NCBI GenBank assembly: GCA_041395785.1
Contig: JAWKZZ010000008.1
Coordinates: forward strand, 1,471 to 65,470
Direction: 5' to 3'
DNA from: Pseudomonadales bacterium
Lineage (GTDB): Bacteria; Pseudomonadota; Gammaproteobacteria; Pseudomonadales; UBA7239
DNA: 64,000 nucleotides
In this document: positions 1,852 through 36,132 of the stretch, piece after piece
How positions within the stretch are numbered: the first letter of the stretch is position 1
Layout: every line of letters starts with the position of its first letter
Program-made: the position numbers and the translations under genes
The notes under the pieces: model-generated
The model's input: the letters and a program-made list of their open reading frames with translations, nothing else
Database searches by the model: none
What the model was told of the DNA's origin: nothing

Positions 1852-1876
1852 TCGCCGACTTCGTCGGACTATTTAA

Positions 1877-1961: not shown

Positions 1962-1967
1962 TAAAAA

Positions 1968-3166: not shown

Positions 3167-3176
3167 CAATAAATCC

Positions 3177-4520: not shown

Positions 4521-4535
4521 GACTCAAAATCCTTG

Positions 4536-5381: not shown

Positions 5382-5422
5382 GGGAAAATAATTTCGCGAA
5401 AAAAAACAAACCAGCGCGACGC

Positions 5423-7348
5423 TTAATGCTCGCCCGCTGGCCCGCCTATCGGTGTCACATTATTGGGGGGTGTTTCCGCTGCCGCTTTTTCTACTTCGTT
5501 GCTACCGCCAGCAGCTCCGCCACCCGCCGATGTATTGTGCCAATCGCGCGGCGCTCGCACGGCGCGACGCGCCATCAAGTCATCCACCTGTTCGCTGTCT
5601 AAGGTTTCATATTCCAGCAGCGCATTTTTCATCGCTTCTAAAATGTCGGTATTGGCATTCAACAAATCGGTGGCGCGCGCATAACTCAAATCAAGAATGC
5701 TTTTGATTTCGCTGTCGATCAATTCCGCCGTATGCGCAGAAATATTTTTCTCACGAAACCCTTCGCCATCGCGCGCGTCGTAATCCAACGCACCCAGCTT
5801 TTCTGACAAACCGTAATTCACCACCATCGCGCGGGCGATGCTGGTTGCCATTTGAATATCGCTGTACGCGCCAGTGGAGACACCGTCCGCGCCGTAAATC
5901 ATTTCTTCTGCGATTCGACCGCCGTACGCCGTAGCAATATCACTCATCAACTTGCGCTTGCTGGTACTGATGCGATCCGCCTCCGGCAAAAACCAAGTAA
6001 TACCCAGTGCGCGACCGCGCGGGATGATGGTGACTTTGTGAATTGGATCGTGTTCCGGCATCAAATAGCCGACGATGGCGTGACCGGCTTCGTGATACGC
6101 CGTCATAGTTTTTTCTTTTTCTGACATCACCATCGATTTGCGCTCGGCGCCCATCATGATTTTGTCGCGCGCTTTTTCAAACTCTTCTGTCGTTACCAAA
6201 CGGCGATTGCCGCGCGCCGCAAACAGCGCCGCTTCGTTCACCAAGTTGGCGAGATCCGCGCCGGAAAACCCTGGCGTGCCGCGCGCAATCACAGAGGCGT
6301 CTACCGCTTCATCCAGCGGCACTTTGCGCATATGCACTTTCAAAATTTGTTCGCGACCACGAATATCCGGCAGCGCAACATGCACTTGGCGATCAAAACG
6401 ACCGGGGCGCAGCAGCGCTTTATCCAAGACATCAGGGCGGTTGGTGGCGGCGATGACAATCACGCCTTCACTGCCTTCAAAACCATCCATTTCTACCAAC
6501 AATTGGTTCAGTGTTTGTTCGCGCTCGTCGTTGCCACCACCGTGACCACCGCCGCGATGGCGACCCACTGCATCAATCTCGTCGATAAACACGATACACG
6601 GCGCTTGTTTCTTCGCCTGTTCAAACATATCGCGCACCCGCGATGCGCCGACACCGACAAACATCTCCACAAAATCCGAACCGGAAATTGAAAAGAACGG
6701 CACTTTCGCTTCGCCAGCAATTGCTTTGGCTAACAGGGTTTTACCCGTTCCCGGTGGACCAGACATCAATACGCCGCGCGGAATTTTTCCGCCCAGTTTT
6801 TGAAAGCGCGATGGATCGCGCAAAAATTCCACTAACTCGCTGACATCTTCTTTTGCTTCATCCACACCGGCCACATCAGCAAAGGTGGTTTTGATTTGAT
6901 CTTCCGACAGCAGACGCGCTTTGCTTTTGCCAAAACTCATCGGTCCGCCTTTGCCACCCATGCCGCCCTGCATCTGGCGCATAAAAAACATAAACACGCC
7001 GACGATCAGCAACACCGGCAATATGGCAAAGAAAATTTGTTGCAACAAACCGGGTTGCTCCGGTTCACGCCCTTCAACTTTGACATTGTTGCTGAGCAGG
7101 TCATCCATCAAATGCGTATCCAGCACATTGGGGCGCACGGTTTGAAATTCCGTGCCGTCTTTCATTTCACCGTTAATTTTTTGGCCGTCGATCACCACCG
7201 ATGCCACACGCTGCTGCTGCACTTCTTGGATAAAGGCGGAGTAGTCGAGTGCGCTGGCTTGTTGCTGCGGCGTGAGATTGCGGAATGCCGACATCAGCAC
7301 AAACAAAATTGCGCCCCACACCAACAAATTTCTGATCGTATCGTTCAA
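5423..7348 (-). CDS. ftsH: ATP-dependent zinc metalloprotease FtsH
   Basis: 641 aa. Walker A GPPGTGKT, the AAA second region of homology, zinc site HEAGHA. Confidence 0.97.
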
Positions 7349-16434: not shown

Positions 16435-17912
16435 AAAATAATTTTCGCGCACAACACTGTTTGATGGTGCAAGGCTGCACTTCCGATGCCGGAAAAAGCA
16501 CTTTGGTGGCGGGTTTGTGTCGCGTGCTAGCGCGACGCGGCGTAAAAGTTGCGCCCTTCAAACCACAAAATATGGCGTTGAACAGCGCCGTCACCGTGGA
16601 TGGCGGCGAGATTGGTCGCGCACAAGCGGTGCAAGCGCAAGCGTGTTTTTTAGAACCGCACAGCGATATGAATCCGATTTTGCTGAAGCCCAACACCGAT
16701 ACCGGCGCACAAGTGATTGTGCACGGCAAAGCACTCAGCAATATGGATGCGCGCCACTATCACCACTACAAAACCGAAGCGATGCAGTTTGTACTGCAAT
16801 CGTTTGAGCGACTGTCTGCGCACTATGCATGTGTAATGGTGGAAGGCGCTGGCAGCCCCGCAGAAATCAATTTGCGCGATCGCGATGTCGCCAATATGGG
16901 CTTTGCCGAAGCGGTGGATTGCCCAGTAATTGTAGTGGCCGATATTGATCGCGGCGGCGTGTTCGCGCATTTGTGCGGCACGCTGGATTTATTGAGCGAT
17001 TCCGAACAACAGCGCGTCGCCGGTTTTGTGATTAACAAATTTCGCGGCGATGTTTCACTGCTACAACCCGGCATTGATTGGCTGGAGCAGCGCACCGGCA
17101 AACCTGTGTTAGCGGTGATGCCTTATTTACACGGCATGCACCTGGAAGCCGAAGACGCGATTGCGTATCAACAGCCAGAAAAAAATAGCGCGCAACGCTT
17201 ACGCGTGATCGTGCCAGTGATGCCGCGCATCAGCAATCACACCGATTTCGATGCGCTGCGTTTACACCCGCAAGTGGATCTCACTTTTGTGCGCGCGGGG
17301 GAAGTCATTCCAGCGGCCGACTTGGTGATATTGCCGGGCAGCAAAAGTGTGCGCAGCGATCTCGCTTTTTTGCGCGCGAACCACTGGGAACCGCATTTGC
17401 AAAAACACCTGCGCTACGGCGGCAAACTGATGGGAATTTGCGGCGGCTTTCAAATGCTGGGCAACAGCATTGCTGATCCGCACGCACTGGAAGGCACAGC
17501 GGGCACGGCGCAAGGTTTTGGTTTTTTGGATTTCGACACCGTGTTAGAACCAGAAAAACAATTGCTGCGCGTACAAGGGCAACTGCAAGCCACCGGCGCG
17601 CGCGTCAGCGGCTATGAAATTCATTGCGGCGTGAGTCGCGGTGCGGCGTTGGAAAATTCGGCACTGGAGCTCGGCGATCATCGCGACGGTGCGCTATCTG
17701 CTGACGGCAACATCCTCGGCAGCTATGTGCACGGCATTTTTGATGAGCAGGAATCGCTGACGAGTTTATTGGCGTGGGCGGGCTTGCGCGATGTAGAAGC
17801 GTTTGATTATCGCGCGCGCCAAGAAGCGGATATCGAGCGACTGGCCGATGCGGTGGAGCAACATTTCAACGCTCAGTGGCTGAATGCATTAACACCCTCG
17901 CCTCGCAGTTAA
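16431..17912 (+). CDS. cobQ: cobyric acid synthase
   Basis: 493 aa. [21 protein letters not shown]-terminus, GATase-1 domain with [13 protein letters not shown] overlap with cobT. Confidence 0.92.
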
Positions 17913-20900
17913 AACTCAGCGCCGTTTACTACCGTTACTTTGCCCACATCTTTCAGCAATTTGGTTTTGCCGTTCACCAGCACAGGCAGATCAAAACCCG
18001 GTATGCCGATGATGATGTCGGCCTTGCCATCGCTGTTGATGTCGCCAGCACTTACGGCTGCGCCGAAATAATCTTTCGTCACATCGCCATATTTTGTTGC
18101 ACCAATTTGGGCGTAACCATTGCCACTGAACACAACAACACTGCCCGCCATTTTGATCGGCTTTTTCGGATTGGCGGTCGGTTTGTTGTCTTTCCACGCA
18201 CCGGCAATGATGTCAGCTTTGTTGTCACCATTCACATCACCCGCTGCCATGCTGTAGCCGAGTTGCGCTTTGGCATTTGCTCCGTAAATTTTTGGTGTTA
18301 GTTCGTCACCGTTGATGCCTGAAAACACCGTGATGCTGCCAGCATCCTTATGTTTACTGTCGGCATCATCCAGCGGCGCACCGACAAGTACATCGTCATA
18401 ACTGTCACCACTCACATCGCCAACCGCAACCGCTTTACCAAACTGCGAACCTTTCACACCGCTTCTTGTGAAAAACGGCTCTACTGAATTTGTCAGCAAA
18501 TACGCTTTAACGCTGCCGGTGCCATTTTCATTCGGTGCACCGATAACAATGGCAGCACCATCGCTGTTCAGCGTGCCGATGGCGACGGCGGCGCCCGCGT
18601 AAGCCTTGGCACTTGCACCATAGAACGGTGTACCGAGTGGGGTGAGACCGCTGCCGGAATACACGGTCACACTGCCTGCCAGCTTCAAACCCGTATCACC
18701 CGTTGCTTTCGGTGCGCCCACCAGAATATCCGGCGTACTGTCGCCGTCCACATCACCCAGCGCCAGCGCCGCACCAAACTGTGATTTGACTTGCGAGCCG
18801 TTGATGATTGCATCCGCCTGGTTGTTGCAGTGATCCCCTCGCCCGTACAACACGGTCACGGTGCCAGTGCGTGTTGTGCCAGCATTCGGAGCACCTACTA
18901 CAACATCGTCACAGCCATCGCCGTCGATGTCTGCGCCACCCGCCACGGCCGTGCCCATGGCATCCTTGGCGGCGAAACCTTCAACGGAAGCCAGTTCCGT
19001 ACCGCCTTTACCGGAGATCACCACGGCGCGCCCGACATCCTTTTTTGCCTTTATTTTCAACGACTTGCTGGCAGGAAGATCGTGACTCGGCGTACCGATC
19101 ACATAGTCGCCATAACCATCGCCATTAAAGTCACCCGCAAAGGCGACTGCGCTGCCGGTCTTGTCGGCCTTCACCTCGCCCGGTACATCACCCAGCACTG
19201 GCACTGGATCATCACAAGCATCACCGATATCGTTGCCATCCCAATCCAGTTGATTCGGATTGAATACGGTTGGGCAGTTGTCAGCACTGTCACCAATGCC
19301 ATCATCATCCGTATCGAGCTTCACGGTGACGGTCAATACTCGGGCAACACCGGCGCTGAATGTAAATGTCAGGCTTGTGGTGCCTTCCGGCTGTGTCGCC
19401 AAATAGCTTTTCTGAATAATTACATCATTGCCTGTGATCCAATAATCCGTTCCAAACACGAGCATTTGCCCTTCATTGCTAATGTCCACGAGTGTGTTGC
19501 CGTTTAGTGCCAATGTTGTGACAACATCGACTTGCGCAGACAGTTTCTTGTCGAAGTTGGCTGTATCCGGACTGATGGTGCTGTCCAGCGGCGCATTGTC
19601 CAGTACAAAACGGTTGGATACCGCGCGAACCTCATTGCCTGCCGTATCTTTCCCTCGAATGTGTAAATACCAGTCGCCATCCACACCTTCTTTTGTCAGC
19701 GCACTGCCATTATTCAAGGGCAGCCAGCCAGCCGCAGGCTCAGCTGTGTCTTGTGTCCAGACATACTCCAGCGTGGACTCCACCAGTCCGCTGCCACCGC
19801 TATCGGTAACCGTCGTCGTTACTGAAGTACTCCGCACCAGCAATTCACTGCCGTTCGGGCTGAAGAGAACCGCTGGCTTGGTTCTGTCGATATTGACCGC
19901 GTATGGCGCAGACAAACTATTTCCCAGCGAATCCGTGACCGTGAACTCACCGGAATTCATACCATCGCTGATGAAAAATATCTCTCCCCCTGGCGTATAG
20001 ATTCCCTGATCTGCTCCGTTCATCGACCAAGTAACGGAAGTAATCGGTGAGGCTCCTGTTTCCGCCGTAGCAGACACCCGGACACTGCTGTTTGTCCATT
20101 CCCCGCTTGCATAATCATCGCCACCCGTCACCTTGACCTTGGTTATCGTCAGTTTCAGGTCACCCCTGCTGATCTTGACGGTGCGACTGTCCGTTTGCAC
20201 ATTGCCCATCCCATCTATCGCCTGAACAGCAATCGAATGGATACCCTCGTCCAATATCGTAATCGGGCCTGAATAATTCGCCCATGTTTTGCCACCATCC
20301 AGCGTATACCGCAATGAAGTCACGCCACTTAGTGCATCTGTTGCGTCTGCGGTAATTTTTACATCTTGATTGGTCCAGGTGTCATTTGAATAAATGCTCT
20401 CATCTGCGTTTTTCATCGTCACGGTCAACGCTGGAGCCGTGTTATCTATCAGAAATGCCGCTGACGCTGCATTCGCCAAATTCCCTGCATAATCCCTGGC
20501 TCTGACATGCAGATACCAGTTTCCGTCTGCTCCAGCGTATGTAAATTGCGCCACCGCCGCGTATGGAAGCAGGGAAAAAACACTCCAGCCACTGGCAGGT
20601 GCCGTGGCCGTTTGTGCCCAGGCATATTCGAGCGTGGACGCATCCAGACCACTCGTCGCATCCGTCACTGTCACCTGAGTATTGATGGTCCGGAGCGGTC
20701 CAACACTGCCGTTGGGGGCGAAGACGATAACCGGTGCAACGCGATCACGCGAGACGGTCAGCGTATAGGTCATGGCTTCGTTTGGCTTCAGATAAGGCAC
20801 CACTCTGACCTTGATCACTGCACCGGCAGCTGGAACCGGTACGGTGACCGTGGAGCCGCTGGTTTGCCGCTGGTCATTGATATACAACGCGGCATAAGTG

Positions 20901-21970
20901 GAGTCTTTCAAAACCGCGTTGATATGGACGCTTGTTGCCTCAGGAGCAATGTCATACTGATATGCGGTAACAGCTGAGGAAAAGGCAGGGGAAGGTGAGC
21001 CCTCCGCCAGTGTCAAACTGCTCAACTCGTTATCACCCGGCACAGAAGTCTGCGATCCCCAACTGACAACAGTGCCGTCACCCTGTAATGCCAGCGAGTG
21101 ATCGACACCGGCTGACACCGCGACAACATCCGCAAGCCCAGCAGGAGGAGCCACTTTGCCATCCGCATTGTCACCCCAACCGATAACCGTGCCGTCATTC
21201 TTCAGTGCCAATGCGTGCATATGATTTGCTGAAATGGCCGTGATACTAGACAGACCCGCTACATCCAGAATCCCGTTTCCGTTAAATTCCTTCCCCCACG
21301 CAACAACGGTACTGTTTGACTTTAATGCCAGCGCATACAAATATCCGGCATCAATCGCAACAACATCAGACAAATTCGATGGCTTGAGTGTCGCACCAGC
21401 ACCGTTTGACCCCCAATCGACGACTGTACCGTCGAATTTCAAGGCCATTGAGTAGTAACTGCCCGCGGCCACCTTGGTAACACCAACCTGCGCGTCAACC
21501 GGCACATTCGCTTGTCCATTCCCATTGAGTCCCCAGGCGTAAACCCTGCCAACATTGCCGACCACGCCTGTTTGCGAGACTGCCAAAGTGTGTTTGCCTG
21601 CTGCAGACATGGCGATAACCTTGGTCAGACCTTGAGGGATAACCGTCTCGCCTGCGTCATCGCTTCCCCAGGCAACCAGTGCCCCGTTCGATTTACGCGC
21701 AAGAAAGGTAGAGTCTTTGGCTGAGATCTCTACTACATCAGTCAGCCCTTCCGGGGGCTTGGCCCACGCGGTGACATTATTACCCCACGCGATAACAGTG
21801 CCATCCGATTTCAGGGCAATAGAATTATTTTGGGCTGCTGCAATCTGGACCACTTTTACCGTATCAGCCACGCCATTTTGCGCAAATGGAGTCATTGTTC
21901 CGGCAAAGAGCAACACCGCTGTTATCGCTACTCCAAACTTTCCCAATATTCTTTCAAAAGTGGGCCGCAC
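17909..21970 (-). CDS. large secreted mosaic protein: signal peptide, 7 RCC1-like repeats, cadherin-like beta-sandwich, Ig-like/'WYLH..D.AGN' modules, X2-like domain, thrombospondin type-3 repeats, 7 FG-GAP repeats
   Basis: 1353 aa. RCC1 blades (..[10 protein letters not shown].., [34 protein letters not shown]). [81 protein letters not shown] Ca-loops [80 protein letters not shown] and [16 protein letters not shown]. Confidence 0.85.
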
Positions 21971-22077
21971 TGTACAAACTCCCTACATTCCAGTTTCTTG
22001 TAGTGTTAGCCGCTATATAGTAATGCCTACTATTGTTGATACATCTCATCTTGCCAGAATGTGACAGAGTTGCCCCG

Positions 22078-22480: not shown

Positions 22481-24316
22481 TTAATCTTTGCGCAAAGTTT
22501 GAATCACTTTCGCTAATGAATTTTCGAACTGATCGCCCTGTTGCACGACGCGCGCTTTATTATCTAACAGCATTTTGATCAATTCATCGCGACGCGGCTC
22601 GGCTAATTTCTTGCCGTCGCGCCCCACAAAAATTAATTTATCCGAAGCGTTAATCACCGCAGCCAATTTGCAGCGCTGGCGCTCGCCGTCGATTTCAATA
22701 TCCACCCACGCGCCAATGCCGAGTGCGCGCACGGTATGCTGCGCGGTTTCCCATTCGTCAATGCGCGCCTGTTTTTCTGCCTGCAACTGTCGATCGCGCT
22801 CCGCCTCTTCTTCTTTGCGTTTACGCTCGGCCGCTGCAATGGCTTCTTTTTCTGCCACCACCTTGGCATGTGCCGCTGCTTCCGCAGCGGCGCGCTCCGC
22901 TTCTTCTGCTTTTTGGCGCGCTTCCTCTGCCGCTTGGCGTGCAGCGGCTTCGGCAATTTTCGCCTGCTCTTCCGCTTGTTTGCGCGCTGCTTCTTCTGCG
23001 CGCACCTGCGCCTCTAAACGCTCTTGCGCGATGCGCTCTGCTTCGCGGCGCGCTTTTTCCTGTGCCTGCTTGCGGCGCTCCTGTTCAACGCGCTGCCGTT
23101 CATCCAACTCGGCTTGCAGCAGAGTTTGTCGTTGATACAACTGCAAAAATAGCGCGACCGTATCGCGAAAAACCTGTGAAAAATTGTTGTCGGAGTCCAA
23201 CAAAATAATTTGTCTACCCGTCAACAAATACGCAAACTCCTCTAGCGTTTTTTCCATGCACTTAGCGCCGAGCACATTGACAAATAGCAAGCGCTCACCA
23301 TCTGTCGATTTCAAAATTAAACGACAGCGCAAGCGTTCATTATTGTCACGCACATAAATTAGCCATTGTCCTTCGGGAATTTGTTTCACCTGATCCAACA
23401 GCGCGCTGCTGACATTAGCAGCAACGCCGGCTTCCACCCCGAGATCTGACAACGGTTCCGCCGGACGCACTTCCACTTTGTTGCCCAGCAACACTTGCAT
23501 GTGCAATTTTTCAATGCGCGTTACCCACGCCTCCAACTCCGCCGCATCAGAAATACTCACCAATTGTTTGGCCAGCTGCGGGATGATTTTCGGAATAGTT
23601 TCGTAAACCTGCTGCATGCCGGCTTCATCTTCTGCACCCAGCATTGAATCCACCAACATTTCACTCACACGCACGATGAGCTTCCAGTCATCACTGGCCT
23701 GTCCTTTGCTGAGATACACCACTTTCATCGAGTGCAGCAGCGGGCCTTTCAATAATTCTTCCACGACATCCGGCATCGGCGCGCGCGCCAACAGCGTGCG
23801 AATTTGTTGTCGCACGGCTTGATCGGCCGCTTCGCCTGCCATGGCACCCTGCGCTGTCTGACGAATGCGGTCTATCAAGGTATCGGCGCGCTGAAAATCT
23901 TTTGCCAGTTGTGCCACCAACTCATCCAACCAAGTTTGAAATGGCGCAGTAGCAGGATCGGCTTTGCGCAAACGCTGCAACATTTCCTCCAAGCGTTGGC
24001 GATATTTTTCACCGGGCTTACCCAACTCGGCACTCCAGTAGCGCCCCGCATCCCACAACTGATCTAACAAACGAAATAAAGGATGCTGTAAATCGCGCAG
24101 CACTGCCGGTTCGCGCAATAGCACCCCCGCCACCAAAGGTCGCAGCGCCAAAAACGGATGCAGCAACTCCGGCTCTAAATCATTTTGCGATTGCCCCTGC
24201 TCGAACACTTGATCGCAGAAGTACAACAAATTCGCTTCCCGCTGCGTGACAGGGTTAACGCCCCTGGGCGCTGCACCGCCCGCTGCAAAGGGATTCATCG
24301 GGCGGTAAATCCACAT
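22481..24316 (-). CDS. DUF1631-like protein with central E/A/R/K/Q coiled coil
   Basis: 611 aa. HPLFRLLDQL segment and two 'G.W......R.RC.L.......L.F....G' modules (IPEGQWLIYVRDNNERLRCRLILK; GIGAWVDIEIDGERQRCKLAAVIN) as I recall for DUF1631. Open frames on the same strand continue to an ATG at 24471 but need about 2 frameshifts, so the true 5' end may be 24471. Confidence 0.6.
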   Translation of the reverse strand: MWIYRPMNPFAAGGAAPRGVNPVTQREANLLYFCDQVFEQGQSQNDLEPELLHPFLALRPLVAGVLLREPAVLRDLQHPLFRLLDQLWDAGRYWSAELGKPGEKYRQRLEEMLQRLRKADPATAPFQTWLDELVAQLAKDFQRADTLIDRIRQTAQGAMAGEAADQAVRQQIRTLLARAPMPDVVEELLKGPLLHSMKVVYLSKGQASDDWKLIVRVSEMLVDSMLGAEDEAGMQQVYETIPKIIPQLAKQLVSISDAAELEAWVTRIEKLHMQVLLGNKVEVRPAEPLSDLGVEAGVAANVSSALLDQVKQIPEGQWLIYVRDNNERLRCRLILKSTDGERLLFVNVLGAKCMEKTLEEFAYLLTGRQIILLDSDNNFSQVFRDTVALFLQLYQRQTLLQAELDERQRVEQERRKQAQEKARREAERIAQERLEAQVRAEEAARKQAEEQAKIAEAAARQAAEEARQKAEEAERAAAEAAAHAKVVAEKEAIAAAERKRKEEEAERDRQLQAEKQARIDEWETAQHTVRALGIGAWVDIEIDGERQRCKLAAVINASDKLIFVGRDGKKLAEPRRDELIKMLLDNKARVVQQGDQFENSLAKVIQTLRKD

Positions 24317-24540
24317 TCTGTAAACCCACCAAACGCGCTAACAGCGTGGTGCGCGCGCGCTCGTCGCCCGCACTCACTTCGGCGGTGGAAAATCCCTTGA
24401 GCTAGGGCTTCTTGCAGCAAACCATCAACAGACATCGAGACAAACACAGCAGGCAATTTGTTCGGTGGCATAGCATTACAGGCAATCAGCGTCGCTGCTG
24501 TGCGTTATGCTGCCGCCTGATCAATAAATCCCTAGAAATT

Positions 24541-27267
24541 ATGAACCACGCAGACTGCATTCTGGTTGACGGCTCCTCCCATTTCTTACCGGGTGCCTTC
24601 CACGCCCTGCCGCCGCTGACCACCAGCAAGGGTCAACCCACCGGCGCAGTGAAAGGCGGGGACCATTAAGCTGCGCAGCCTGCGCAAGCAGTATCCGCAC
24701 AGCGCCATCGCCGTGTTCGACCCGAAAGGCGACACTTCGCAACGCGTTGTACGCCGACTACAAAGCCAATCGCCCACCCATGCCCGACGATTTGCGCGCA
24801 GATTGTGCACCGCCGCATCGCCGATTCGCGTGATGGGAATTCCACTGGCTGATCGTCGATGGTGTGGTGCCGATGATGTGATCGACATCGGCTGGCCGTG
24901 CAGGCGCGCAACCAACAACAAGCCGTGCTGATTTCCACCGGCGACAAAGACATGGCGCAGTTGGTGACGAGCATGTCACGCTGGGTCAACACCATGACCA
25001 ACACCGTGCTGGATCGCGTTATGGGTGACGAAAGTATTTGGCACCGGTAAGCCGGAGCAGATTGTCGATTACCTCGCCTTGATGGGTGACAAAGTCGACA
25101 ACATTCCTGGCGTGGATAAGTGCGGCCCCAAGACTGCGGTGAAGTGGCTGCAAGAATACGGCTCGCTAGCAAGCGTGATGGACAACGCCGAAAAAATTGG
25201 CGGCAAAATTGGCGAGAACTTGCGCGCTGCTTTGTCCTTTCTGCCGCTGTCGCAACAACTCGCCACCATCAAAACCGATGTAGAGATGCCCATCAACTGG
25301 CGCGACTTACAAGCGGGCGAAATGGATCGCGCTGCACTGCTCGAATGGTTTACCGAACTGGAAATTCAAAGTCTGGATTGCAGAAGTGAATAACGGCGGC
25401 GATGTGATTGCTGCCGCTACTGCACCAACAACGCAAACCGAAACTGTCCCCGCACAATACGACACCATTACCGACATGGATCACTTGCAACAGTGGATCT
25501 CACGCTTGCAGTCTGCACCGTATTTTGCACTCGACACGGAAACTGGATTCGCTCGATTACATGCGTAAGCCAATATTGTCGGGTTGTCCTTGCAGTCAAA
25601 ACAGGCGAAGCCGCTTATGTACCGTGGCGCACGATTATCTCGGCGCGCCAACACAATTATCACGCGAAGCCGTACCTAAAGCACTCCAACCATTACTGAA
25701 GATACTTCCATTAAAAAAGTGGATGCAGAACGGCAAATACGATATGAATGTGTTTCGTATGCCGGCATTCAATTGCGCGGTGTGGCGTATGACACAATGC
25801 TGGAATCTTAGCGCGTTTTAGATCTGCCGCTACGCGCCACAACATGGATGATCTCGCGAAAAATATTTGGATTACGACACGGTTGCTTTTGAAGATATCG
25901 CCGGCAAAGGTGCGAATCAATTGTCGTTCAATCAAATTGACTTAGAAAAGCAGCGTTTTATGCCGCTGAAGATGCCGATATCACCTTGCGCCTGCATCGA
26001 AAACCCTGTGGCCACAACCGAGCGCCACACCGGCGTTGCAATCAAGCCTTTTGACCACATCGAAATCCCTTGCTTCCTGCATTGTCGCGCATCGAGCGCA
26101 ACGGCGTGCTGGTCGATGTCAAACGCTTACACAAGCACAGCGTAGAACTGGCGAGCGCATGCAAGCACTCACGCAAGAAGCGTTCACACTCGCCGGGCAA
26201 GAATTTAATTTGAGCTCGCCCAAACAACTCGGCGAAATTTTGTACGGAAAATTGAAACCGGTTTGCGCTGAAAAAAACACCGACCGGACAACTGTCTACC
26301 GCCGAACCGGTGTTGGTGCAGAACTCGCACTGGATTACCCGCTGCCGAAAGTGATTATGGAATATCGCGCGTGAGCAAACTGAAATCGACTTACACCGAT
26401 AAATTGCCGCAGATGGCAGGTGACCCTGCAACTGGTCGCGTTCACACTTCGTATCACCAAGCGATTGCGTCTACAGGGCGTTTGCTTCCTTCAGATCCCA
26501 ATCTCCAAACATTCATCTTTCGCACGGAAGAAGGTCGTCGCGTGCGACTGGCGTTTATCGCGCCCAAAAATTACAAAATGCTCGCCGCGGATTACTCACA
26601 AAATTGAATTGCGCATCATGGCGCACTTATCTGCGGATGACGGTTTGCGCAACGCGTTTGTACAGCGTTTTTCGACATTCACCGCGCCACCGCTGCCGAA
26701 GTGTTTGATACCGCATTAGAAAAGTGACGACCGAACAATGCCGCAGCGCGAAAGCCATCAACTTTGGTTTGATTTACGGTATGTCAGCCTTTGGTTTAGC
26801 GAAACAATTGCACATCGGTCGCCATCAAGCACAGGAATACATTGATTTATATTTTTCGCGCTACCCCGGCGTACATTGCGTTACGGAGGAAACACGCCAA
26901 CAAGCCGCCGAACAGGGTTTTGTTGAAAACGCTGTTTGGTCGCCGTTTGTATCTGCCCGATATCCGCTCCAAAACGCCGGCTTGCGCCAAGCGGCTGAGC
27001 GCACGGCGATCAACGCGCCGATGCAGGGCACTGCAGCCGATATCATCGCGCGCGATGATCCGCGTCTCGGAATGGCTGCAACACACGAAAACCGATGCGC
27101 GCATGATCATGCAAGTACACGACGAGCTGGTGTTCGAGGTCGCTGAACGCGATGTCGAGACCGTGCGCGAGACAGTCTGTAGCCTGATGTCTGCCGCAGC
27201 CGAACTGCATGTACCACTGGTCGTCGATGCCGAAGGCATCGGCGACAACTGGGACGAAGCCCACTGA
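24541..27267 (+). pseudogene. polA: DNA polymerase I, multiply frameshifted as written
   Basis: Pol I peptides occur in all three + frames. Examples are MNHADCILVDGSS..ALPPLTTSKGQPTGAV (24541-), [110 protein letters not shown]|[29 protein letters not shown] and QVHDELVFEV...NWDEAH. The total span of 2727 nt fits about 909 aa. There are at least a dozen frame switches. Confidence 0.9.
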
Positions 27268-27281
27268 ATACAGCCAACCTC

Positions 27282-28173
27282 ATGAAACATTCACTGTTAT
27301 TGCAAACTTTGACAAGAGCCCCGCATGGACACCACGAACCCGATACTGAAACTTCGGCCGCACCCGCCATCATCGCTTTTGCCGGCATCAGCGTGCTGAC
27401 CTCGTCGTGGTACACCGTCGATGAAGGCGAGCGCGCCGTGATCCTTATGCAATGGTGCCGCCATCGGCACTGCCGAACCCGGCCTGCACTTCAAGATACC
27501 GGTCATCGACCGAGCTGCATAATTTCAGCAGACATTGAATGAGTTTGACCAGATGCCCGCCTACTCGAAAGACCAAGCCGGCCGAGATCAAGCTCTCGCC
27601 TACCCCACGCTTCCAGCGTGCAGTCCATCTATTCCACCTACGGCTGGTGGAAGGTCTCGTCGACCGCATCCTGCGCCCGCGTGTGAACGATTCCACCAAG
27701 GAAGTGTTCACGAAGTTCACCGCCGTGTCGGTGATCCAGGATCGCGCCAAGTTCGGCACGGATGTTCACCAGGCTGTCATCAAGATCGTCAAAGCAATGA
27801 CATGGTGACGAATCCATCCAGATCGAGAACATCGACTTCTCCAGCGCCTACGAACAGAGCATCGAGCAGCGCATGCTGGCCGAAGTCGAAGTGCAGAAAG
27901 TTCGCCAGAACTGGAGAAGGAAAAGTCTCCGCCGACATCACCCGCACCCGCGCACAGGCCGAAGCTGATGCCCGGTTGCATTGGCACAGGCCACGGCCGA
28001 CGCCAAGGCGATTGAACTGCGCGCCAGGCTGAAGCGGCCGCCATCCGCGCCAAGGCTGATGCGCTGCGCGAGCCCGAACCTCGTAACCCTGATCCAGGCC
28101 GAGCGCTGTGGACGGCAAACTGCCGGCGACGATGGTGCCGAAGCTCGGCGGAAAGCTGTTTATCGTGGGGTGA
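27282..28173 (+). pseudogene. SPFH/band-7 (prohibitin-like) family protein, frameshifted as written
   Basis: Fragments lie in several frames: SWYTVDEGERAVIL, NGAAIGTAEPGLHFKIPVID, LEGLVDRILRPRVNDSTKEVFTKFTAVSVIQDRAKFG, IQIENIDFSSAYEQSIEQRMLAEVEVQKVRQN, and ends ..KLFIVG* (TGA 28171-28173). Confidence 0.7.
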
Positions 28174-28185
28174 AATAACTTCACC

Positions 28186-28325
28186 ACCCGGCGCTGCGCC
28201 ATCCTGAATCCGTTCCTTACCCGGCGCTGCGCCACCCTCTCCCGAATCAGAGAGGGTTGAGATGCTGCCTGCTGTTTTTTCCTTCTCCCGCTGGCGGAGA
28301 AGGTGGCCGAAGGCCGGATGAGGGT
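28186..28325. repeat. cluster of REP-like palindromic elements
   Basis: Direct repeat ACCCGGCGCTGCGCCA at 28186-28201 and 28219-28234. Hairpins ccctctc/gagaggg (28235-28256), ccttctcc/ggagaagg (28281-28303) and ggcc-gaa-ggcc (28305-28315). Confidence 0.7.
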
Positions 28326-28620
28326 TATCTCGCCAGCGCATTCCGTATCTTGCCAAACATTTCCTCATCGTGATGCCACAACCACATCAGCGAGTTGTAT
28401 TCTTTTCGCGCCAGCAACTCCGCGCTGTATTCAAATCCATAGTCCACTTTTCCGTCAGCCGCTCTGGAAAGACAGCACCAGCAAATCGCCGTCTGCTGGC
28501 TGCAGTGCCACATCGAAAGCATCAACCTCCCGCAAACGCGCCATAGAATGTGTTCGCGATTAATCGCATCTACAGCAGGATCCAGATAATACGGCGGCTG
28601 GATGGTGCCTGATCATTTCA
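28325..28620 (-). pseudogene. small ORF of unknown function, apparently frame-broken
   Basis: The minus strand reads ..TIQPPYYLDPAVDAINREHILWRV / LREVDAFDVALQPADGDLLVLSFQSG / DGKVDYGFEYSAELLARKEYNSLMWLWHHDEEMFGKIRNALAR* across 2-3 frames. I recognise no family. Confidence 0.2.
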
Positions 28621-28734
28621 TTCTTGTCTTGCGCCTGACGATAAAAATCCAGTAGTGGGCACAATCTTTCCACATCAGCCGTCTTGCAATGGACACAGTT
28701 TGAATTTGTCTGATACTACGCACATGGCACACCC

Positions 28735-31700
28735 TCACATCCCGCAGAATTTCCCATCCTCCACCCTTACCTTCCCACCACCACCAGCATTTCCAGTATC
28801 GATGGCAGGCGTTTTTTCCAAGCGCCCTTGCCGGTGAAGTGCGCGGCGATGGCATCAATATCCAATGCAATTTTGCTGGCGGCGAGTATATGTCTGCCAC
28901 GGCCTTCGCTTGCGCAATACCTTCTTCGGCCACGGTTGTTTTTCACAGCAGCAACGATTGGCTCACTCAAGTACTTCCGGCTCCACATCCAGCGGTTTGC
29001 ACGGCAATGGTTTCAGCAGCGGCTTGGGCCTTGTGTGTTTTGTGCGCTCTTGTTTTGATATTCCGGCCGCAACCAACGCACGATGCCGCGCTGTTCTTCT
29101 TCAACGCGCTCGGCATTTAATGCAACAAGGCGCCCAATAAAACCCCATCCAATTCGCGCTTGATGTCGATGCGCAATGACCCTCCGCTGCTGACGTGGCA
29201 CCTCCCCTATTGCATAGGGGGAGGATTTATCTCCTTGCGAAGGAGTGGCGCGCAGCGCCGAGGGGGGTCACGCCATCTTCACCACCTGCATCATCTCCTG
29301 CAAGCATCTATTCCAGCCGTAAGCGTCGAGCACGGCGAGGTCGAGTTCATCGTGCAATTGCTTGAGCACGGATACCAGCCCCTGTTCGTGGATGGTTTTT
29401 TCCTTCGCTGTCAGCGCGTCGCCGCTTTTGAGCTTTTCCAGCACGCTGTACATGCCGGTGAGCGTCAGCTCCGGGTGCTGCGCCTGCTGTTTCTTGCGAT
29501 GTGCATCCAGCTGCCTTCGCCAATGCGCGAATTCGGATTTTCTGTTCTTCCGTGGCAGCTGGAAACGGGAAAGGCTCGAAGCAACGGTATTGTTGTAAAC
29601 GGGATCATTACCAACACCCAGCCTTGCGCCAGCAGCCAATGCCCATACAACATGAGATGCACTAGACAAAACCCCTAGAACATAACCATCGTCATGCGCA
29701 ACTACGCGTATCTTTTGGTCTGGCAAATAGTCAGATTCGATAAAGACAAATGTTCTGTGTTTGGCGGTTTCTGTTGTTCCTATATATCTTGAGCAATTTT
29801 GTATAGCCTCGCGCAAATCTGGACGCGCTCTACCAAATAACCACCAATTATCCCTGAAAAGCTTATCTCTGCTGGAATCTCTTTCCGGCTTTACCCGGTC
29901 AAAAATTCTTTGAAACTCTTTGGGATAGAGTTCCATTGCCTGTTTATCAGAAAGACCGAAGAAATCCACAACCCGACAATCTCTTGGCTTTTGCGTCAAA
30001 TCCCTGCCATTCATGTACTTCCTGATCACTGGCGAATTTACACCATGCAGAGGATCTTCAGGCTCCACAACAAAGCCACCACCAACAAGGATGACACCCA
30101 TGAATGAAAGACCAGTATTGGAACGTAATGCCGGCGCTGACGCAACGTTGGCTCCAACCCGCAAGTCTGAATGAATGAGGCCAGAAGCCGCTCTCAGCTT
30201 CACATCAACTTCAGAATCTTCGACCTCTTTCTTCTTCAACCTTCTTGAGCAAACCGGATTTTTTACCTGCTTCACCAACCGTCATCGCAATACCGCACAG
30301 CAGCACCATCAGCGTTATCAACCCACGGGTGATCAGGAATTGCGAACACCAGCGACAGCGGTGCCTTGGCTGAAAGGTGTGTATCAACAATTTTTCTGTT
30401 GAACGCCATCGTCAAGCTGTTCGTAGTAACTGTGCCCGAACCGCAGCATTTTTTTCAAGCGCACACTTTCAGCCGCATGGTGCCACCAATACATAAATTC
30501 AAATCGGCTGTATCCGGCACATCGGGCCACGCGGCGCGCAACGCTTCCACATAACCATCACCCAGTGCCACACGCATGCGCTTGTTACCAATAAACGGTG
30601 GATTCCCCACCACAAAGTCCGCCTGCGGCCACTCGGCCTTGCGCGGATTAACGTACTGATCGATGGTGATGCGCGCAGTTTCATCCGGCACATCTTCCCC
30701 CGTCACCGGGATGCTTCTTGAACGCCTTGCCATCCCAGCGCGACACCGGCACGCCTTTCTCATCCTGCAACAACTCGATGCCGTCATACGCCAGCACGGC
30801 ATCGCGGTTTTCAATGTTGTGGAAATCGCGCAACACCGGCTGCGGCGGCTGCGCCGAACCGTTGGTCTTGAAATGCCATTGCAGATAGCCGATCCACAAC
30901 ACCATCTCGGCAATGCTCGCCGCGCGTGGATTTAACTTCAATACCAAGAAACTGGTGCGGATCAACCGTTAAGCCTTCCGTCTCCAAACTCATTGATACA
31001 TTCAAATCGTGCAACTGGTTCAACACTTCGCCTTCCAGCCGTTTCAAGTGTTCCAGCGTTACATACAGAAAGTTTCCCGAACCGCAAGCAGGATCCAGCA
31101 CGCGCACATTGCACAAACGATGTTGAAATTCACGCAACACATTTTCGGCTTCTTTGTTTCTTTTTCTTCACTCGCCAGCATCAGTGCCGCCGTCTGCGCG
31201 GTGTTCTGTCCTTCGCGCAGCGGTTCAATTACGGTTGGCAACACTAAACGCTCGACACATGCGCGCGGCGTGTAATGCGCACTGAGCGCGTGACGCTCAG
31301 TCGGGTCGAGTGCGTTCCAGTAGCGTGCCAAAAATCGCTGGTTCTACTTGGCTCCAATCTTTTCTGCCCGCTTCAATTCAACAGCGCAATTTGATCGCGG
31401 TGGATCCAACGGCAACACATCTGTTGTTTGAACAACTTGCCATTAAAGCGCAACACATCGGCGCGCAGAGAAACGGTAAAACCGCCGCCATCCATCGTCT
31501 TCCTGCCAAATCTGGTTACCAGCGGCATAAATTGCCAGTAGTGCGTTGGCGAGTGATTCCAATAATTCAGTGAACGAACGCTTCGGCAGCAGGCCAACAT
31601 CTTCAGCAAAAAGTGGGAACAAGCAGCGCGTGAGAAATCCAGCCACGCGTTCGGCACCAGTTCGCGCTTTCCAATGCTTTCGCGGATACCGGCCAGTTGC

Positions 31701-32304
31701 GCGGCAATTTCGCGCGTGACTTTGGCAGATTGGCGCGTGGGATCCAACGAGAGCGGATCACACCAAAGAGTTCTCAAACGCTCGCGAATTCTTTTTCATC
31801 GCGCAGATCATCGAGCTTGATGCGGTGCGAGCGTGGATCAGGAAACGGTGCAGTAGTGGTTCGCGCCGCTGCGAGAGAACCCGGCATAAACATCAATGAG
31901 GTTACTAACATCCACTCACCAACAAAAATGGTGGGCGACCTTCACCGGGCTGGCAAAGGGCGATTGCTCGGCTTGTTTGTGCGCTCTTTAACAAATGCCA
32001 CACCGAAACCCTGCGTGTGCTCGCCCCAAGTTTTGAGTTTCTTGTTCTCCAGTACGAAAGCACCACGGCGGTAATAATCGATTCCGCCCTCCGCCGTTGA
32101 GCCATATCGGCATGATTAAAAATCACGCGCCGCTCAAACACATAGGCGTTGTCGCGGGTATCTTCGCTTGCGCAGGATCAGGCACCGGCACGGGTGAGCA
32201 GTTCGGTATAGGCTCGTGGCAAAACTCCGCGCTGGCAAGTTCCGTTGCCTAGCACCGCGCCAGCGTGATAAAAGATTCCACAGGAGAAATATCTGAAGTT
32301 CCAT
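28735..32304 (-). pseudogene. MmeI-family type IIL/IIG restriction-modification enzyme (fused PD-ExK nuclease, N6-adenine methyltransferase and TRD), multiply frameshifted and interrupted
   Basis: Fragments in at least 9 frame segments. N-terminus ..SRWRGA.., DTRDNAYVFERRVIFNHADGSTAEGGIDYYRRGAFVLENKK (D-X9-E-X-K, 32041-32082). PFPDPRSHRIKLDDL. MTase motif [13 protein letters not shown] (~31060-31100). Motif [11 protein letters not shown] (30593-30604). PDHPWV-type segment. TRD ORF 29268-30278. C-terminal tail VRWLRPEYQ...KGAWKKRLPSILEMLVVVGR(V)RVEDGKFCGM* (TGA at 28735-28737). Confidence 0.8.
29199..29266. repeat. REP-like palindromic element inside the R-M gene
   Basis: Hairpins cctcccc-tattgcata-ggggagg (29201-29223) and ctcctt-gcg-aaggag (29231-29245), plus GGCGCGCAGCGCCG. 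That last stretch is the reverse complement of the CGGCGCTGCGC core shared with the 28186-28325 elements. Confidence 0.6.
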
Positions 32305-32397
32305 GTTTTTGTGATCCATAGAAGTCGATAAGAACAACCTGCCGCAAGCGGCACAGCGTGATCCTTGATTTGCGCCCTTGCCCATCCGCCACAACTA

Positions 32398-32413
32398 CTG
32401 TATAAATAATCAC
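32398..32413 (+). promoter_or_regulatory. candidate LexA (SOS) box upstream of recN
   Basis: TACTGTATAAATAATCACTG reads CTG-N10-CAC (one mismatch to CTG-N10-CAG) with an AT-rich centre. It lies 33 nt upstream of the recN GTG. recN is a classic SOS gene. Confidence 0.4.
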
Positions 32414-32445
32414 TGTGAAAACCACTTCACCGAAGGGAGTGCGCC

Positions 32446-34113
32446 GTGCTGCTGCAACTGACTATCAAGGACTACGCCGTCGCCCGCGCGCTGGATGCCG
32501 AATGGCGTGCCGGTATGACTGCCATCACCGGCGAAACCGGTGCCGGCAAGTCCATTTTGCTAGATGCGCTGGGGCTGGCGCTGGGTGATCGCGCCGATGC
32601 CGAGGCCATTGCCAGCGGTGCGGAGCGCGCCGATATCGCTGCCCTGTTTGATCTGCAACACATTCCCGAAGCGCGCGATTGGCTGGAGGCGCAGGGCTTC
32701 CCGCAGCATGAACAACAGTGCTTGCTGCGGCGCGTGATACTGCGCGAAGGCCGCGCGCGCGCGTGGATCAACGGTCAGCCCGCCACGCTGGCGCAACTGC
32801 GCGAGCTGGGCGAAATGCTGATCGACATTCACAGCCAGCACGAACACCAATCGCTGCTGAAAAAAGACACGCATCTGCGCCTGCTCGATGCCTTTGGCCA
32901 ACACGCCAGCGCGCTGGAATCGGTGCAGGGTGTTTATCGCCAATGGCGCGATATTCGCCAGCAGATCGAACAACTGCAAGGCAGCAACCACGACACCACC
33001 GCGCGTTTGCAACTGATTGAATATCAAGTGGATGAATTGGATCGCATCGCACCACAACCCGATGAATTGGCCGCGCTGGAAGCCGAACAAAAACAACTGG
33101 CCAATGCCGACGAACTGATCACGCACTGCGAGCAATTATTGCAACTGTGCAGCGAAAACGAAGCCTTCAATGTGCAGCACGCCCTGAGCCACGCGCAGCA
33201 ATTGTTGGTGCGTTCGCCGCTGCGCGATGCGCTGCCCAGTGTGATGGACATGCTCAACAATGCGTTGATTCAAATTGACGAAGCGACACAAGACCTTGCG
33301 CGCTATCGCGATCATGTCAGCGTCAACCCAGAACGCCTGCATGAAGTGGAGCAACGCCTCAACACGCTGTACGAATTGGCGCGCAAACACCGCGTGCAAG
33401 CGCGCGAATTACCTGCACTGCACGAACAACTGCATCAAGAATTGACGCTGCTGCGCGACAGCGACGGCGCTATTGCGCGATTACAACAACAGCAATCCGC
33501 CCTAGAAATCGAGTTTCACAAACATGCCAGTGCGCTCAGCAAACAGCGCAAAAAAGTGGCGGAAAAACTGGCACGCGAAGTCAACGCGCAACTGGCGCAA
33601 CTCAAAATGGCACACTGCCGCTTTGAAATTGCTTTAACGCCACTGACCGATGCTGCGCCGCATTTACATGGCGCAGAGCAAGTGGAGTTTTTGATCAGCA
33701 CACAGCCCGACGCACCGGCGCGCAGTTTGGCGCGCGTGGCATCCGGCGGTGAGTTGTCGCGCATTTCGCTGGCGATCCAAGTCGTCACCGCCAGTACTTC
33801 GCGCACACCCACGCTGGTGTTTGATGAAGTGGATGTCGGCATCGGCGGGCCAACCGCCGTTGTTGTCGGCAAGTTATTGCGCCAGCTCGGCGAGCGCGGG
33901 CAAGTGCTGTGTGTGACGCATCAAGCACAAGTGGCCGCGCAAGCGCACCAACACTTACAAGTTTCTAAGCAACTGAAAGACAAACGCATGGAAACCGCAC
34001 TACAACATCTGCTGGATACACAACGCGTGGATGAAATCGCGCGCATGATAGGCGGCGAAAAAATCACCAAACAATCGCGTGCGCACGCGCAGGAAATTTT
34101 GTCGGTTCACTAA
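32446..34113 (+). CDS. recN: DNA repair protein RecN
   Basis: 555 aa. MLLQLTIKDYAV.., Walker A GETGAGKS, long coiled coil, SGGELSRISLAIQ signature, Walker B LVFDEVDVG. Confidence 0.95.
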   Translation: MLLQLTIKDYAVARALDAEWRAGMTAITGETGAGKSILLDALGLALGDRADAEAIASGAERADIAALFDLQHIPEARDWLEAQGFPQHEQQCLLRRVILREGRARAWINGQPATLAQLRELGEMLIDIHSQHEHQSLLKKDTHLRLLDAFGQHASALESVQGVYRQWRDIRQQIEQLQGSNHDTTARLQLIEYQVDELDRIAPQPDELAALEAEQKQLANADELITHCEQLLQLCSENEAFNVQHALSHAQQLLVRSPLRDALPSVMDMLNNALIQIDEATQDLARYRDHVSVNPERLHEVEQRLNTLYELARKHRVQARELPALHEQLHQELTLLRDSDGAIARLQQQQSALEIEFHKHASALSKQRKKVAEKLAREVNAQLAQLKMAHCRFEIALTPLTDAAPHLHGAEQVEFLISTQPDAPARSLARVASGGELSRISLAIQVVTASTSRTPTLVFDEVDVGIGGPTAVVVGKLLRQLGERGQVLCVTHQAQVAAQAHQHLQVSKQLKDKRMETALQHLLDTQRVDEIARMIGGEKITKQSRAHAQEILSVH

Positions 34114-35670: not shown

Positions 35671-36132
35671 TACATCTCCAATGGATACAAAGTTTGGCAA
35701 CTTGAACGCCGATAATCGCTGCGCCACTCTTCTAATTTTTTACCACGATCTTTTTCTAGCACAATTTCTTCATTGCCGTTTTCATCCAGAAAAATACCGC
35801 GATCACCCCTAGCAATGGCTGCAATATCTTCTTTCCATTTCTTGCAGCGCGCGCCTATTGCCTTCTCTAAGGCTTTCTTTTTCTTGGCCTCTAAATCTTT
35901 TTCATCCTGCGTTTTTTCTGTACTGACCACAACAGAAGAAACTGCAGCATTACTGCTGCCATGATCGATATTGACCTTGTTCAGTGCTTCATCAATCGCC
36001 TCCGCTTTTTTCAGTAGGCGCGCATCACCAAAAATGCACTTTGCCGTTTTCATCCGTCCACTTATACACTTCGGCGTACACCGACACACTCGCCAGCAAC
36101 AACAGCGCTCCCAGTAAGCATATTTTCTTCAC
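35670..36132 (-). pseudogene. DUF4124 domain protein, one frameshift in a homopolymer
   Basis: GTG 36132 (GGAGG 5 nt upstream) opens VKKICLLGALLLLASVSVYAEVYKWTDENGKVHFW*. Dropping one T from the T5 run (A5 on + at 36029-36033) joins it to ..VHFGDARLLKKAEAIDEALNKV.. (track ORF 35670-36089). The signal peptide plus YKWTDENG.VHF is the DUF4124 signature. Confidence 0.7.

Follow-up and report, generated by a model that had tools for sequence, protein, structure and literature searches.

The locus considered here raises the question of whether a bacterium has recently lost a run of adjacent genes that includes polA, or whether its assembled sequence is at fault. It lies in a window of 64,000 nucleotides from a contig of a Pseudomonadales metagenome-assembled genome (MAG), and comprises 8.2 kb in which dense insertions and deletions of 1–2 nt, together with scattered substitutions, are found in coding and intergenic DNA alike. 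Five genes are broken: the 5′ end of a DUF1631-family gene, polA, an SPFH gene, a 115-aa ORF that has no match in Pfam or PADLOC, and a 3.56-kb gene of the MmeI family (Table 1). The first-pass annotation placed the block at 24290–32310 and listed four broken genes. The block is real and all four are indeed broken, but the 115-aa ORF had been missed, and small indels continue into the intergenic DNA as far as 32440, which marks the right edge of the patch. This edge lies 6 nt before the start of recN, and the left edge falls inside the DUF1631 coding sequence.

Table 1. Features in and around the damaged block (window coordinates; L086 is the sister MAG GCA_041395665.1).
Feature	Coordinates	Strand	Observations
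DUF1631-family gene	22481–24476	−	First ∼80 codons (24245–24476) with 3–4 frameshifts; other ∼590 codons intact
Error-rich patch	24245–32440		First and last window-specific small indels at these coordinates
polA (DNA polymerase I)	24541–27264	+	37 frame changes; frame-corrected product 93% identical to L086 PolA (903 aa, intact)
Different-ancestry segment	24680–32420		91–100% identity to L086 per 100 nt, against 67–82% in the flanks
SPFH/Band_7 gene	27325–28170	+	14–15 frame changes; 95% identical to L086 286-aa protein after frame correction
115-aa ORF	28328–28673	−	7 frame changes; frame-corrected product 99% identical to that of L086
MmeI-family Type IIL/IIG restriction-modification gene	28738–32299	−	43 frame changes; 1189 aa in L086
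Divergent module	29500–30600	−	∼50–65% identity to L086; C-terminal methyltransferase part and target recognition domain of the MmeI-like gene
Frameshift-free stretch	29587–30234	−	647 nt, target-recognition part of the MmeI-like gene, unshared with L086
RecN-like gene, clean right flank	32446–34113	+	0 frame changes; 86–88% amino acid identity to relatives

Frameshift-aware alignment against intact orthologues, one of the checks proposed with the first-pass annotation, locates 104 frame changes between 24245 and 32266 and none in ∼25 kb of similar coding sequence from the flanks, which bears out the description of every gene in the block as shredded. The changes are denser than the frame hops every ∼100–400 nt first described, their mean spacing being 77 nt. 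Damage density is similar in all five genes and in the spacers, that is, in essential, accessory and intergenic DNA, and the mean longest-ORF length is ∼400–570 nt within the block compared with 1,000–4,000 nt elsewhere. Between 24316 and 32446 only the stretch 29268–30278 yields an ORF longer than ∼200 aa. It had been reported as the sole long uninterrupted stretch, and it is the only ORF of such length, but it conceals a compensating −1/+1 pair at ∼29587 and 29514, and its stop codon arises from frameshifts at ∼29265–29278. Only 29587–30234 is truly free of frameshifts; at the rate of the block, ∼14 indels not divisible by three would be expected there (P(0) ∼6e-7).

One possible explanation is that the frame changes are biologically meaningful, reflecting programmed frameshifting, phase variation or editing. 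Some restriction-modification (RM) genes phase-vary via simple repeats, and this is the one general point for phase variation besides the frameshifts themselves. The 104 changes, however, affect five unrelated genes on both strands, the sites are neither slippery nor simple-repeat sequences and include many random-base insertions, intergenic DNA is equally affected, and the orthologues are intact without such frame changes. Mapping of the frame changes, the indel spectrum and the intact orthologues effectively refute this explanation already, and we consider it virtually inconceivable.

A close reference for the block is provided by the sister MAG GCA_041395665.1 (L086), whose flanks are those of a different species. 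There DUF1631, polA, Band_7, the 115-aa ORF, the MmeI-like gene and RecN follow the same order and none is broken, and the frame-corrected products of the block are 93–99% identical to its proteins. The frame-corrected PolA aligns along residues 1–903 both to this orthologue and to that of L001 (83% identity). PolA orthologues carry PF02739, PF01367, PF01612 and PF00476, and the DUF1631–polA synteny is conserved. The underlying gene, of ∼900 aa at a conserved locus, is thus predicted to encode a DNA polymerase I with 5′-3′ exonuclease, 3′-5′ exonuclease and family-A polymerase domains. In the deposited sequence its conserved motif DPNLQNIPIR is corrupted over a short stretch, at ∼26505–26525.

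The MmeI-like gene can be recognised in the same way. In the window its Pfam domains are spread across frames and an NPPFIG motif is present, and the L086 orthologue has the Pfam domains MmeI_N, MmeI_hel, MmeI_Mtase and MmeI_TRD and matches the PADLOC model REase_MTase_IIG (PDLC03627) end to end (positions 4–1131 of 1136; 1550 bits). From this domain architecture the underlying gene is predicted to encode an MmeI-family Type IIL/IIG RM enzyme, and it resembles other members of the family in having MmeI_N, a helicase-spacer, a gamma-class methyltransferase with the NPPF motif and a target recognition domain (TRD). Its product of ∼1189 aa includes a C-terminal extension and is presumably longer than MmeI itself. 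Enzymes of this family change specificity via the TRD, and the methyltransferase C-terminal/TRD module is the only part of the shared segment that differs strongly between the window and L086. The gene differs from its family in being unreadable as deposited in the window, owing to the artefact argued for below, and its restriction and single-strand modification activity at a defined site is putative. The homologue on L085 carries an IS110 insertion.

The nature of the damage becomes clear on comparison with L086. Over 6,379 aligned nt of the block, 152 indel events are seen, or one per 42 nt, together with 249 mismatches, about one third of which are found no more than 5 nt from an indel. Insertions number 82 and deletions 70, for a net length change of +17 nt; 99 events involve 1 nt and 42 involve 2 nt (together 93%), and the largest is 6 nt. 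In 25 of the 54 single-base insertions the inserted base is unlike either neighbour. Runs of three or more contain a moderate excess of deletions, most indels lie outside such runs, and long homopolymers are fewer in the block than in the rest of the window. Individual breaks quoted in the first-pass annotation are real (A4 where A3 fits at 26600–26603, A4 where A5 fits at 26720–26723, and a 2-nt loss at ∼24737), but in the block as a whole homopolymer length changes are not the main class of indel. A homopolymer-only error model, of the kind associated with 454, Ion Torrent or nanopore data, was rejected, since most indels fall outside runs of at least three and many insertions are of random bases.

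Substitutions tell a consistent story once the reference is close enough. With identical alignment parameters the indel/mismatch ratio is 0.55 for polA in the block, compared with 0.02–0.07 for natural intact gene pairs; over the whole alignment to L086 it is ∼0.6. The 167 substituted codons free of indels comprise 86 synonymous and 81 nonsynonymous differences and no nonsense differences, a distribution that fits ∼1.4% real divergence plus ∼1.8% random error. The apparent error is made up of ∼1.8% substitutions, 1.3% insertions and 1.1% deletions, ∼4% in total. After frame correction there are no nonsense codons, where random substitution at the rate estimated here should have produced ∼3–5; this deficit is informative as a test of random substitution only with the L086 comparison in hand. 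Against the more distant relatives L001 and L002 (∼80% nucleotide identity) the block seemed to carry ∼5–6% excess substitutions, and against L001–L004 it showed a ts:tv ratio of ∼1.5, elevated dN and a doubled dN/dS. The apparent excess arises because the block has a different ancestry, not from decay, and an explanation by substitution noise or relaxed selection, based on L001–L004 alone, was dropped once L086 had revealed that ancestry. The initial characterisation of the block as having many indels and few substitutions likewise looked wrong against L001 and L002 and holds against L086.

Genuine and very recent decay would require that the whole 8-kb block, with polA in it, ceased to be under selection after its acquisition, and that real mutations then broke the five genes. 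The frameshifts are present in the deposited sequence, RM islands are often inactivated, as the L085 homologue illustrates, and several frameshifts per gene in adjacent genes recall the pseudogenes of Mycobacterium leprae, Rickettsia and recently host-restricted symbionts. A weaker point is that no intact second polA of this MAG is found among the best 120 matches, given that MAGs are incomplete and the database may lack it; the only closer PolA among those matches belongs to another assembly. The spectrum, however, is not that of decay. Natural small indels in bacteria amount to ∼5–10% of base substitutions, with a deletion bias and a long size tail. In the block the indel/substitution ratio is 10–25 times that of the natural comparisons and more than ten times too high for pseudogenes; deletion bias, large deletions and nonsense codons are lacking, and net length is conserved. 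We know of no mutational process by which random single bases would be added to non-repetitive DNA at intervals of ∼40 nt.

The distribution of the damage also argues against decay. The damage is as heavy in an important core gene as in accessory genes and in spacers, a clean island of 647 nt lies inside one gene, and a near-identical intact copy of the block exists in a sister genome. The block ends inside DUF1631, the remainder of which has none of the ∼25 indels expected at the rate of the block and keeps normal constraint, its dN/dS of 0.056 being the value found between relatives. We consider decay very improbable, and the same judgement applies to a newly imported ∼8-kb segment, with the polA of the genome at its native locus, destroyed by an unfamiliar process, with balanced 1–2-nt indels every ∼40 nt and few substitutions, that left no functional Pol I at the locus. 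The “remarkable” alternative raised in the first-pass annotation, a genuine decay of polA, thus finds no support, and its preferred reading of an unpolished or low-coverage assembly patch is strengthened by the balanced indels, the 6-nt size limit, the absence of nonsense codons and the edge inside DUF1631.

We conclude that the shredding is very probably a technical artefact, an uncorrected assembly patch on a strain-variable locus, and not gene decay; in the organism itself the genes beneath it are almost certainly unbroken. In long-read and hybrid (meta)genome assemblies, unpolished regions give rise to spurious frameshifted “pseudogenes”, and repeats and low-coverage paths are left uncorrected by polishers. 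The block resembles such errors in its local run of 1–2-nt indels, comparable in number to substitutions and found in both coding and non-coding DNA, in its sharp edges unrelated to gene boundaries, and in its clean flanks, its MAG origin and the sparse single-base frameshifts elsewhere. These last, all four of which had been listed in the first-pass annotation and are confirmed, lie in ddl (near 52590), in ptsP (near 39090 and 39190) and in a T5 run of the DUF4124 gene (near 36020). They point to a long-read-type assembly with residual errors, in which a low background of frameshifts extends even to the essential gene ddl. The block departs from a finished long-read or hybrid consensus in its unusually high density, its ∼4% total apparent error being nearer to that of a single raw read, and in indels that are only moderately associated with homopolymers, with insertions at least as frequent as deletions. 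In raw reads of the nanopore type, mismatches, insertions and deletions occur together at an error level of a few percent; the slight excess of insertions is not the usual nanopore consensus bias, and counts against the artefact reading.

On the artefact reading the patch would be of near-raw long-read quality, missed by consensus correction or polishing in an otherwise well-polished contig, and the total apparent error would correspond to a single uncorrected long read or a very small number of them. That coverage was low over the patch, or that polishing failed there, is something we infer from the sequence rather than observe. The patch lies on the polA–recN gap and nearly coincides with a segment of ∼7.7 kb, comprising most of polA, the SPFH gene, the 115-aa ORF and the MmeI-family RM gene, that is almost identical to its counterpart in L086, a genome of the same NCBI submission series. 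Identity to L086 is 93–98.6% per 500 nt in the block and 67–82% in the flanks; the error-corrected estimate for the patch is ∼98.6%, the flanks being at ∼78%. The earlier suggestion of a mixed-strain patch is to this extent upheld, the patch nearly coinciding with a segment common to another genome.

Two routes to such a patch can be envisaged. The assembly path through a variable or shared region may have been backed by one or a few long reads, from a minor strain variant or from a read bridging a gap or repeat; alternatively, reads ambiguous between two genomes that share the segment may have caused polishing to be skipped. The target-recognition core, unique to this genome, would in the latter case have been corrected and so appear clean. 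The edges of the noise and of the shared segment are not identical. The noise starts ∼430 nt before the L086-like identity (24245 compared with ∼24680) and also covers ∼370 nt (30234–30600) of the zone that is not L086-like; at the right-hand end the two agree within ∼40 nt. Simple versions of both routes were rejected. Multi-mapped short reads that left a shared repeat unpolished would account for the clean TRD core and the right edge, but not for the 430-nt overhang or the 370 noisy unshared nt, and one raw bridging read would account for the uniform error density, but is insufficient for the clean 647 nt.

A variant of the artefact reading, compatible with it, is that the patch is chimeric, the L086-like segment being foreign to this genome and derived from low-coverage reads of a co-occurring L086-like organism that were spliced in where the two sequences are homologous, with one junction in polA and the other upstream of recN. 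The step in identity between patch and flanks, the near coincidence of the right-hand ends, and the position of the ancestry switch in polA, in a stretch conserved among all relatives, are consistent with this, and the protein accessions of the two MAGs are close (MEZ5494745 and MEZ5539062), suggesting one project. The leftmost ∼430 noisy nt (24245–24680), however, group with L001 and L002, as does the window to the left of ∼24650, so that both ancestries are represented in the noisy read or reads. The divergent module is moreover contiguous with noisy L086-like parts and includes the clean stretch, implying that a distinct haplotype exists, and its TRD has no second copy in the database, the next best match being 56% identical. 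We regard a chimera as unlikely, though considerably less so than decay.

Being a sister genome that differs in species in its flanks, L086 does not supply a second, independent assembly of this genome or population. In a metagenome-contig scan with RecN for a population of the same species the best match was only 85% identical at the amino acid level, exact-protein look-ups with flanking proteins of the window returned no independent assembly on record, and a literature search on the accession of the sister assembly, for its sequencing platform, found no match. Taking the artefact reading as the basis, the locus itself is strain-variable and probably laterally exchanged. The polA–recN gap is a variable hotspot, and the ∼7.7-kb segment, which holds an MmeI-family RM gene and the greater part of a core replication gene, seems to have been transferred between lineages with ∼20% divergence elsewhere, its target-recognition module being swapped, a modestly interesting lead. 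Because of the quality of the patch, the case for lateral exchange calls for read-level confirmation.

The main value of the analysis lies in quality control. As deposited, the MAG seems to have no functional polA, SPFH gene or RM enzyme, and these genes would be wrongly counted in any automated survey that scores pseudogenes, genome reduction, the content of defence systems or the loss of essential genes. Such a patch is misleading in that, against distant relatives, it mimics fast, relaxed evolution, its error signature being visible only with a close reference. The ORF at 29268–30278 is 100% identical to NCBI MEZ5494745.1 (“MAG: ... R3E61_09310 [Pseudomonadales bacterium]”), encoded on a 150-kb contig, and NCBI already holds a spurious 335-aa “hypothetical protein” from the frameshifted fragment.

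Between positions 24316 and 32446 of the window, an ORF scan finds a single long ORF, 29268-30278. Over 25-32 kb the longest ORF per kb averages ~400-570 nt, against 1,000-4,000 nt elsewhere, and Pfam matches to MmeI_hel, MmeI_Mtase and MmeI_TRD are fragments spread across three minus-strand frames, with a Band_7/SPFH fragment on the plus strand. These ORF lengths and scattered fragments bear out, in outline, the first-pass annotation, which described a run of shredded genes containing one long ORF. Frame changes were counted with a purpose-written frameshift-aware protein-to-DNA aligner, the first round giving 37 in polA, 15 in the SPFH gene, ~31-35 in the MmeI-like gene and, in the DUF1631 gene, four in the first ~80 codons and none beyond. 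With proteins of a sister MAG (locus L086) as references, 104 frame changes are seen across 24245-32266 and none in RecN; the block is confirmed, with its limits, originally 24290-32310, refined to 24245-32440 and its counts revised. No frame changes occur in the ~25 kb of flanking genes, a 1,357-aa gene among them, that could be compared with relatives L001 and L002. In a five-way alignment, all 42 window-specific indels fall in 24248-27235, with none in the adjoining 2.2 kb of DUF1631.

L086, on contig JAWLAB010000002.1 of GCA_041395665.1, was reached with a frame-corrected PolA query, which matched the intact 903-aa PolA MEZ5539062.1. The error spectrum was measured against it over 6,379 aligned nt, taken from the L086-like parts of the block only, where 249 mismatches stand beside 152 indel events. 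Insertions and deletions are balanced (82 and 70; net +17 nt) and small (99 single-nucleotide events, 42 of two nucleotides, maximum 6 nt). Almost half of the single-base insertions (25/54) match neither neighbour, runs of three or more hold moderately more of the single-base deletions than expected (19/45, compared with 14%), and 82 of the 249 mismatches are no more than 5 nt from an indel. Indel-free codons show 86 synonymous, 81 nonsynonymous and no nonsense changes, where random change would give 29%, 68% and 3.2%; a simple mixture estimate is ~1.4% true divergence plus ~1.8% substitution error. Indel events per mismatch reach 0.55 in the block polA, compared with 0.02-0.07 in natural intact pairs aligned with identical settings (recN and DUF1631, window versus L086; polA, L001 versus L086 and L001 versus L002).

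The high ratio of indels to mismatches, the small size and balance of the indels and the intact genes of L086 support the earlier reading of the block as an assembly artefact, and its pattern matches uncorrected long-read-type error, ~4% in total. Evolutionary decay is for practical purposes excluded by several features combined: 1-2-nt insertions and deletions balance one another every ~40 nt, inserted bases are random and total length is kept; there are no nonsense codons, and core gene, accessory genes and spacers are damaged equally; and the block edge falls inside DUF1631, the remainder of which is under normal purifying selection. Genuine decay of polA is most improbable, and we conclude that the shredding is not a real biological feature.

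Comparison with relatives at first seems to add substitutions to this damage. Four loci from Pseudomonadales/Cellvibrionales MAGs (L001-L004; 70-83% nucleotide identity), retrieved by scanning a genome collection with the intact part of DUF1631, all keep DUF1631-polA synteny. At sites invariant in the four, window-private changes amount to 8-9% in the block and 3% in the flank, and polA dN is 0.104 for the window versus L001/L002 against 0.028 for L001 versus L002. The block ts:tv ratio versus L001/L002 is ~1.5, and some of the changes cluster: DPNLQNIPIR, a Pol I motif that is universally conserved, is locally garbled. In-frame stop codons are almost absent, though random substitutions at the apparent level should yield them. 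Reading these substitutions as error or decay is misleading, since the block belongs to a different, L086-like lineage and the divergence is real, which also accounts for the missing stop codons.

Features of the block, its surroundings and the compared loci
Feature	Position	Observation
L086 gene order		Same as window, all intact: DUF1631 (650 aa), polA (903 aa), Band_7 (286 aa), 115-aa ORF, MmeI-like (1189 aa), RecN (555 aa), then GDSL, HSP33, DUF4124
L086-like segment	window 24680-32420; L086 10146-17873	~98.6% identical (error-corrected estimate); flanks group with L001/L002
ORF115 (115 aa)	window 28328-28673, minus; L086 13784-14131	Between SPFH and MmeI-like 3' end in both MAGs
C-terminal methyltransferase and target-recognition module	window 29500-30600, minus	~50-65% identical to L086
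1,357-aa gene	window 17912-21982, minus	Also in L002 (88% aa identity); not at syntenic position in L001 or L086
polA-recN gap	window 27265-32445	SPFH, ORF115, MmeI-like; same in L086
polA-recN gap	L001 4956-7013	660-aa B12-binding radical-SAM protein, PADLOC candidate PDC-M51A match
polA-recN gap	L002 302-313	Empty; polA directly abuts recN-like gene
polA-recN gap	L003 1-2489	SPFH and ORF of at least 477 aa
MmeI-like copy	L085 (another database locus) 1445-6086	Interrupted by IS110 transposase
Isolated frameshift	window ~52590	ddl, outside block
Isolated frameshifts	window ~39090 and ~39190	ptsP, outside block
Isolated frameshift	window ~36012-36033	DUF4124, outside block

Nucleotide identity to L086 is 67-82% in the flanks and 93-98.6% per 500 nt in the block (gaps ignored), except at 29500-30600, where it is ~60%. 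Compared in 100-nt steps, the window sides with L001/L002 as far as ~24650, is L086-like (91-100%) from ~24700 and remains so to ~32400. After frame correction, PolA, SPFH and ORF115 are 93%, 95% and 99% identical to their L086 counterparts; the products of the flanking genes, DUF1631 and RecN, reach 80% and 86%. The L086-like segment, which spans most of polA, the SPFH gene, ORF115 and the MmeI-family gene, would represent either a candidate lateral exchange, in which most of polA was replaced and a restriction-modification island gained, or a chimeric join of foreign sequence into this contig. A chimera seems unlikely: at its left end the noisy patch is of the window's own lineage, and its target recognition domain differs from that of L086, two points that favour a real recombinant. 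If the segment truly belongs to this genome, lateral exchange would have replaced most of polA and supplied the island, with its target-recognition module swapped.

The noisy patch has almost the same limits as the segment that L086 shares, and its sole frameshift-free stretch, 29587-30234, where ~14 non-3n indels would be expected (P ~6e-7), lies inside the module not common to L086. Together these tie the poor consensus to a locus that is variable or shared. The poor consensus probably arose from a low-coverage variant path, from a single read bridging a repeat, or from reads that two co-assembled genomes could both claim. Each of these simple mechanisms leaves some edge unaccounted for: the noise begins 430 nt to the left of the shared segment and also extends over 370 nt of unique sequence (30234-30600).

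Both the stop at 29268 and the seeming intactness of the 336-aa ORF 29268-30278 were created by frameshifts, and a -1/+1 pair at 29587/29514 conceals the conserved motif RCFEPFPFP in a different frame. This ORF is 100% identical to NCBI MEZ5494745.1 ('MAG: hypothetical protein R3E61_09310 [Pseudomonadales bacterium]'), encoded on a 150-kb contig, which shows that the window derives from a metagenome-assembled genome. That annotated 335-aa protein is a piece of the MmeI-like gene produced by artefact: it ends at a false stop codon, and 24 of its codons, lying between two frameshifts that compensate each other, are read in the wrong frame.

Outside the block, the four isolated frameshifts noted in ddl, ptsP (twice) and DUF4124 are confirmed as single-base events, all in short runs (T5 where T4 fits; CC and GGG). 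They point to a sparse background of indel errors in the assembly, even in the essential gene ddl, and are most likely residual consensus errors; the ptsP pair, ~100 nt apart, could mark a small uncorrected patch.

The genes beneath the patch are ordinary: polA, SPFH/Band_7, ORF115 and a restriction-modification gene of the MmeI family (Type IIL/IIG). In L086 the orthologue of the last aligns along its whole length with PADLOC REase_MTase_IIG (PDLC03627) and contains the four MmeI Pfam domains. For the 29500-30600 module the protein database offers no other close copy (the next-best hit is 56% identical), and a swap of the specificity module seems to have taken place. ORF115, with no match in Pfam or PADLOC, might be an accessory of the restriction-modification gene. 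The polA-recN gap is a hotspot of variation across the window, L086, L001, L002 and L003, and the 1,357-aa gene is a further presence/absence polymorphism close to the block. Homologues of the MmeI-like gene (P0025/P0128, P0002-P0240) often occur as two ORFs, of ~600-700 aa (N-terminal) and ~500-590 aa (C-terminal), split just after the NPPF motif; such splits may reflect genes that are often inactivated, errors in other assemblies or the make-up of the database itself. A single 2.4-Mb contig of Candidatus Accumulibacter ACC007 carries both halves.
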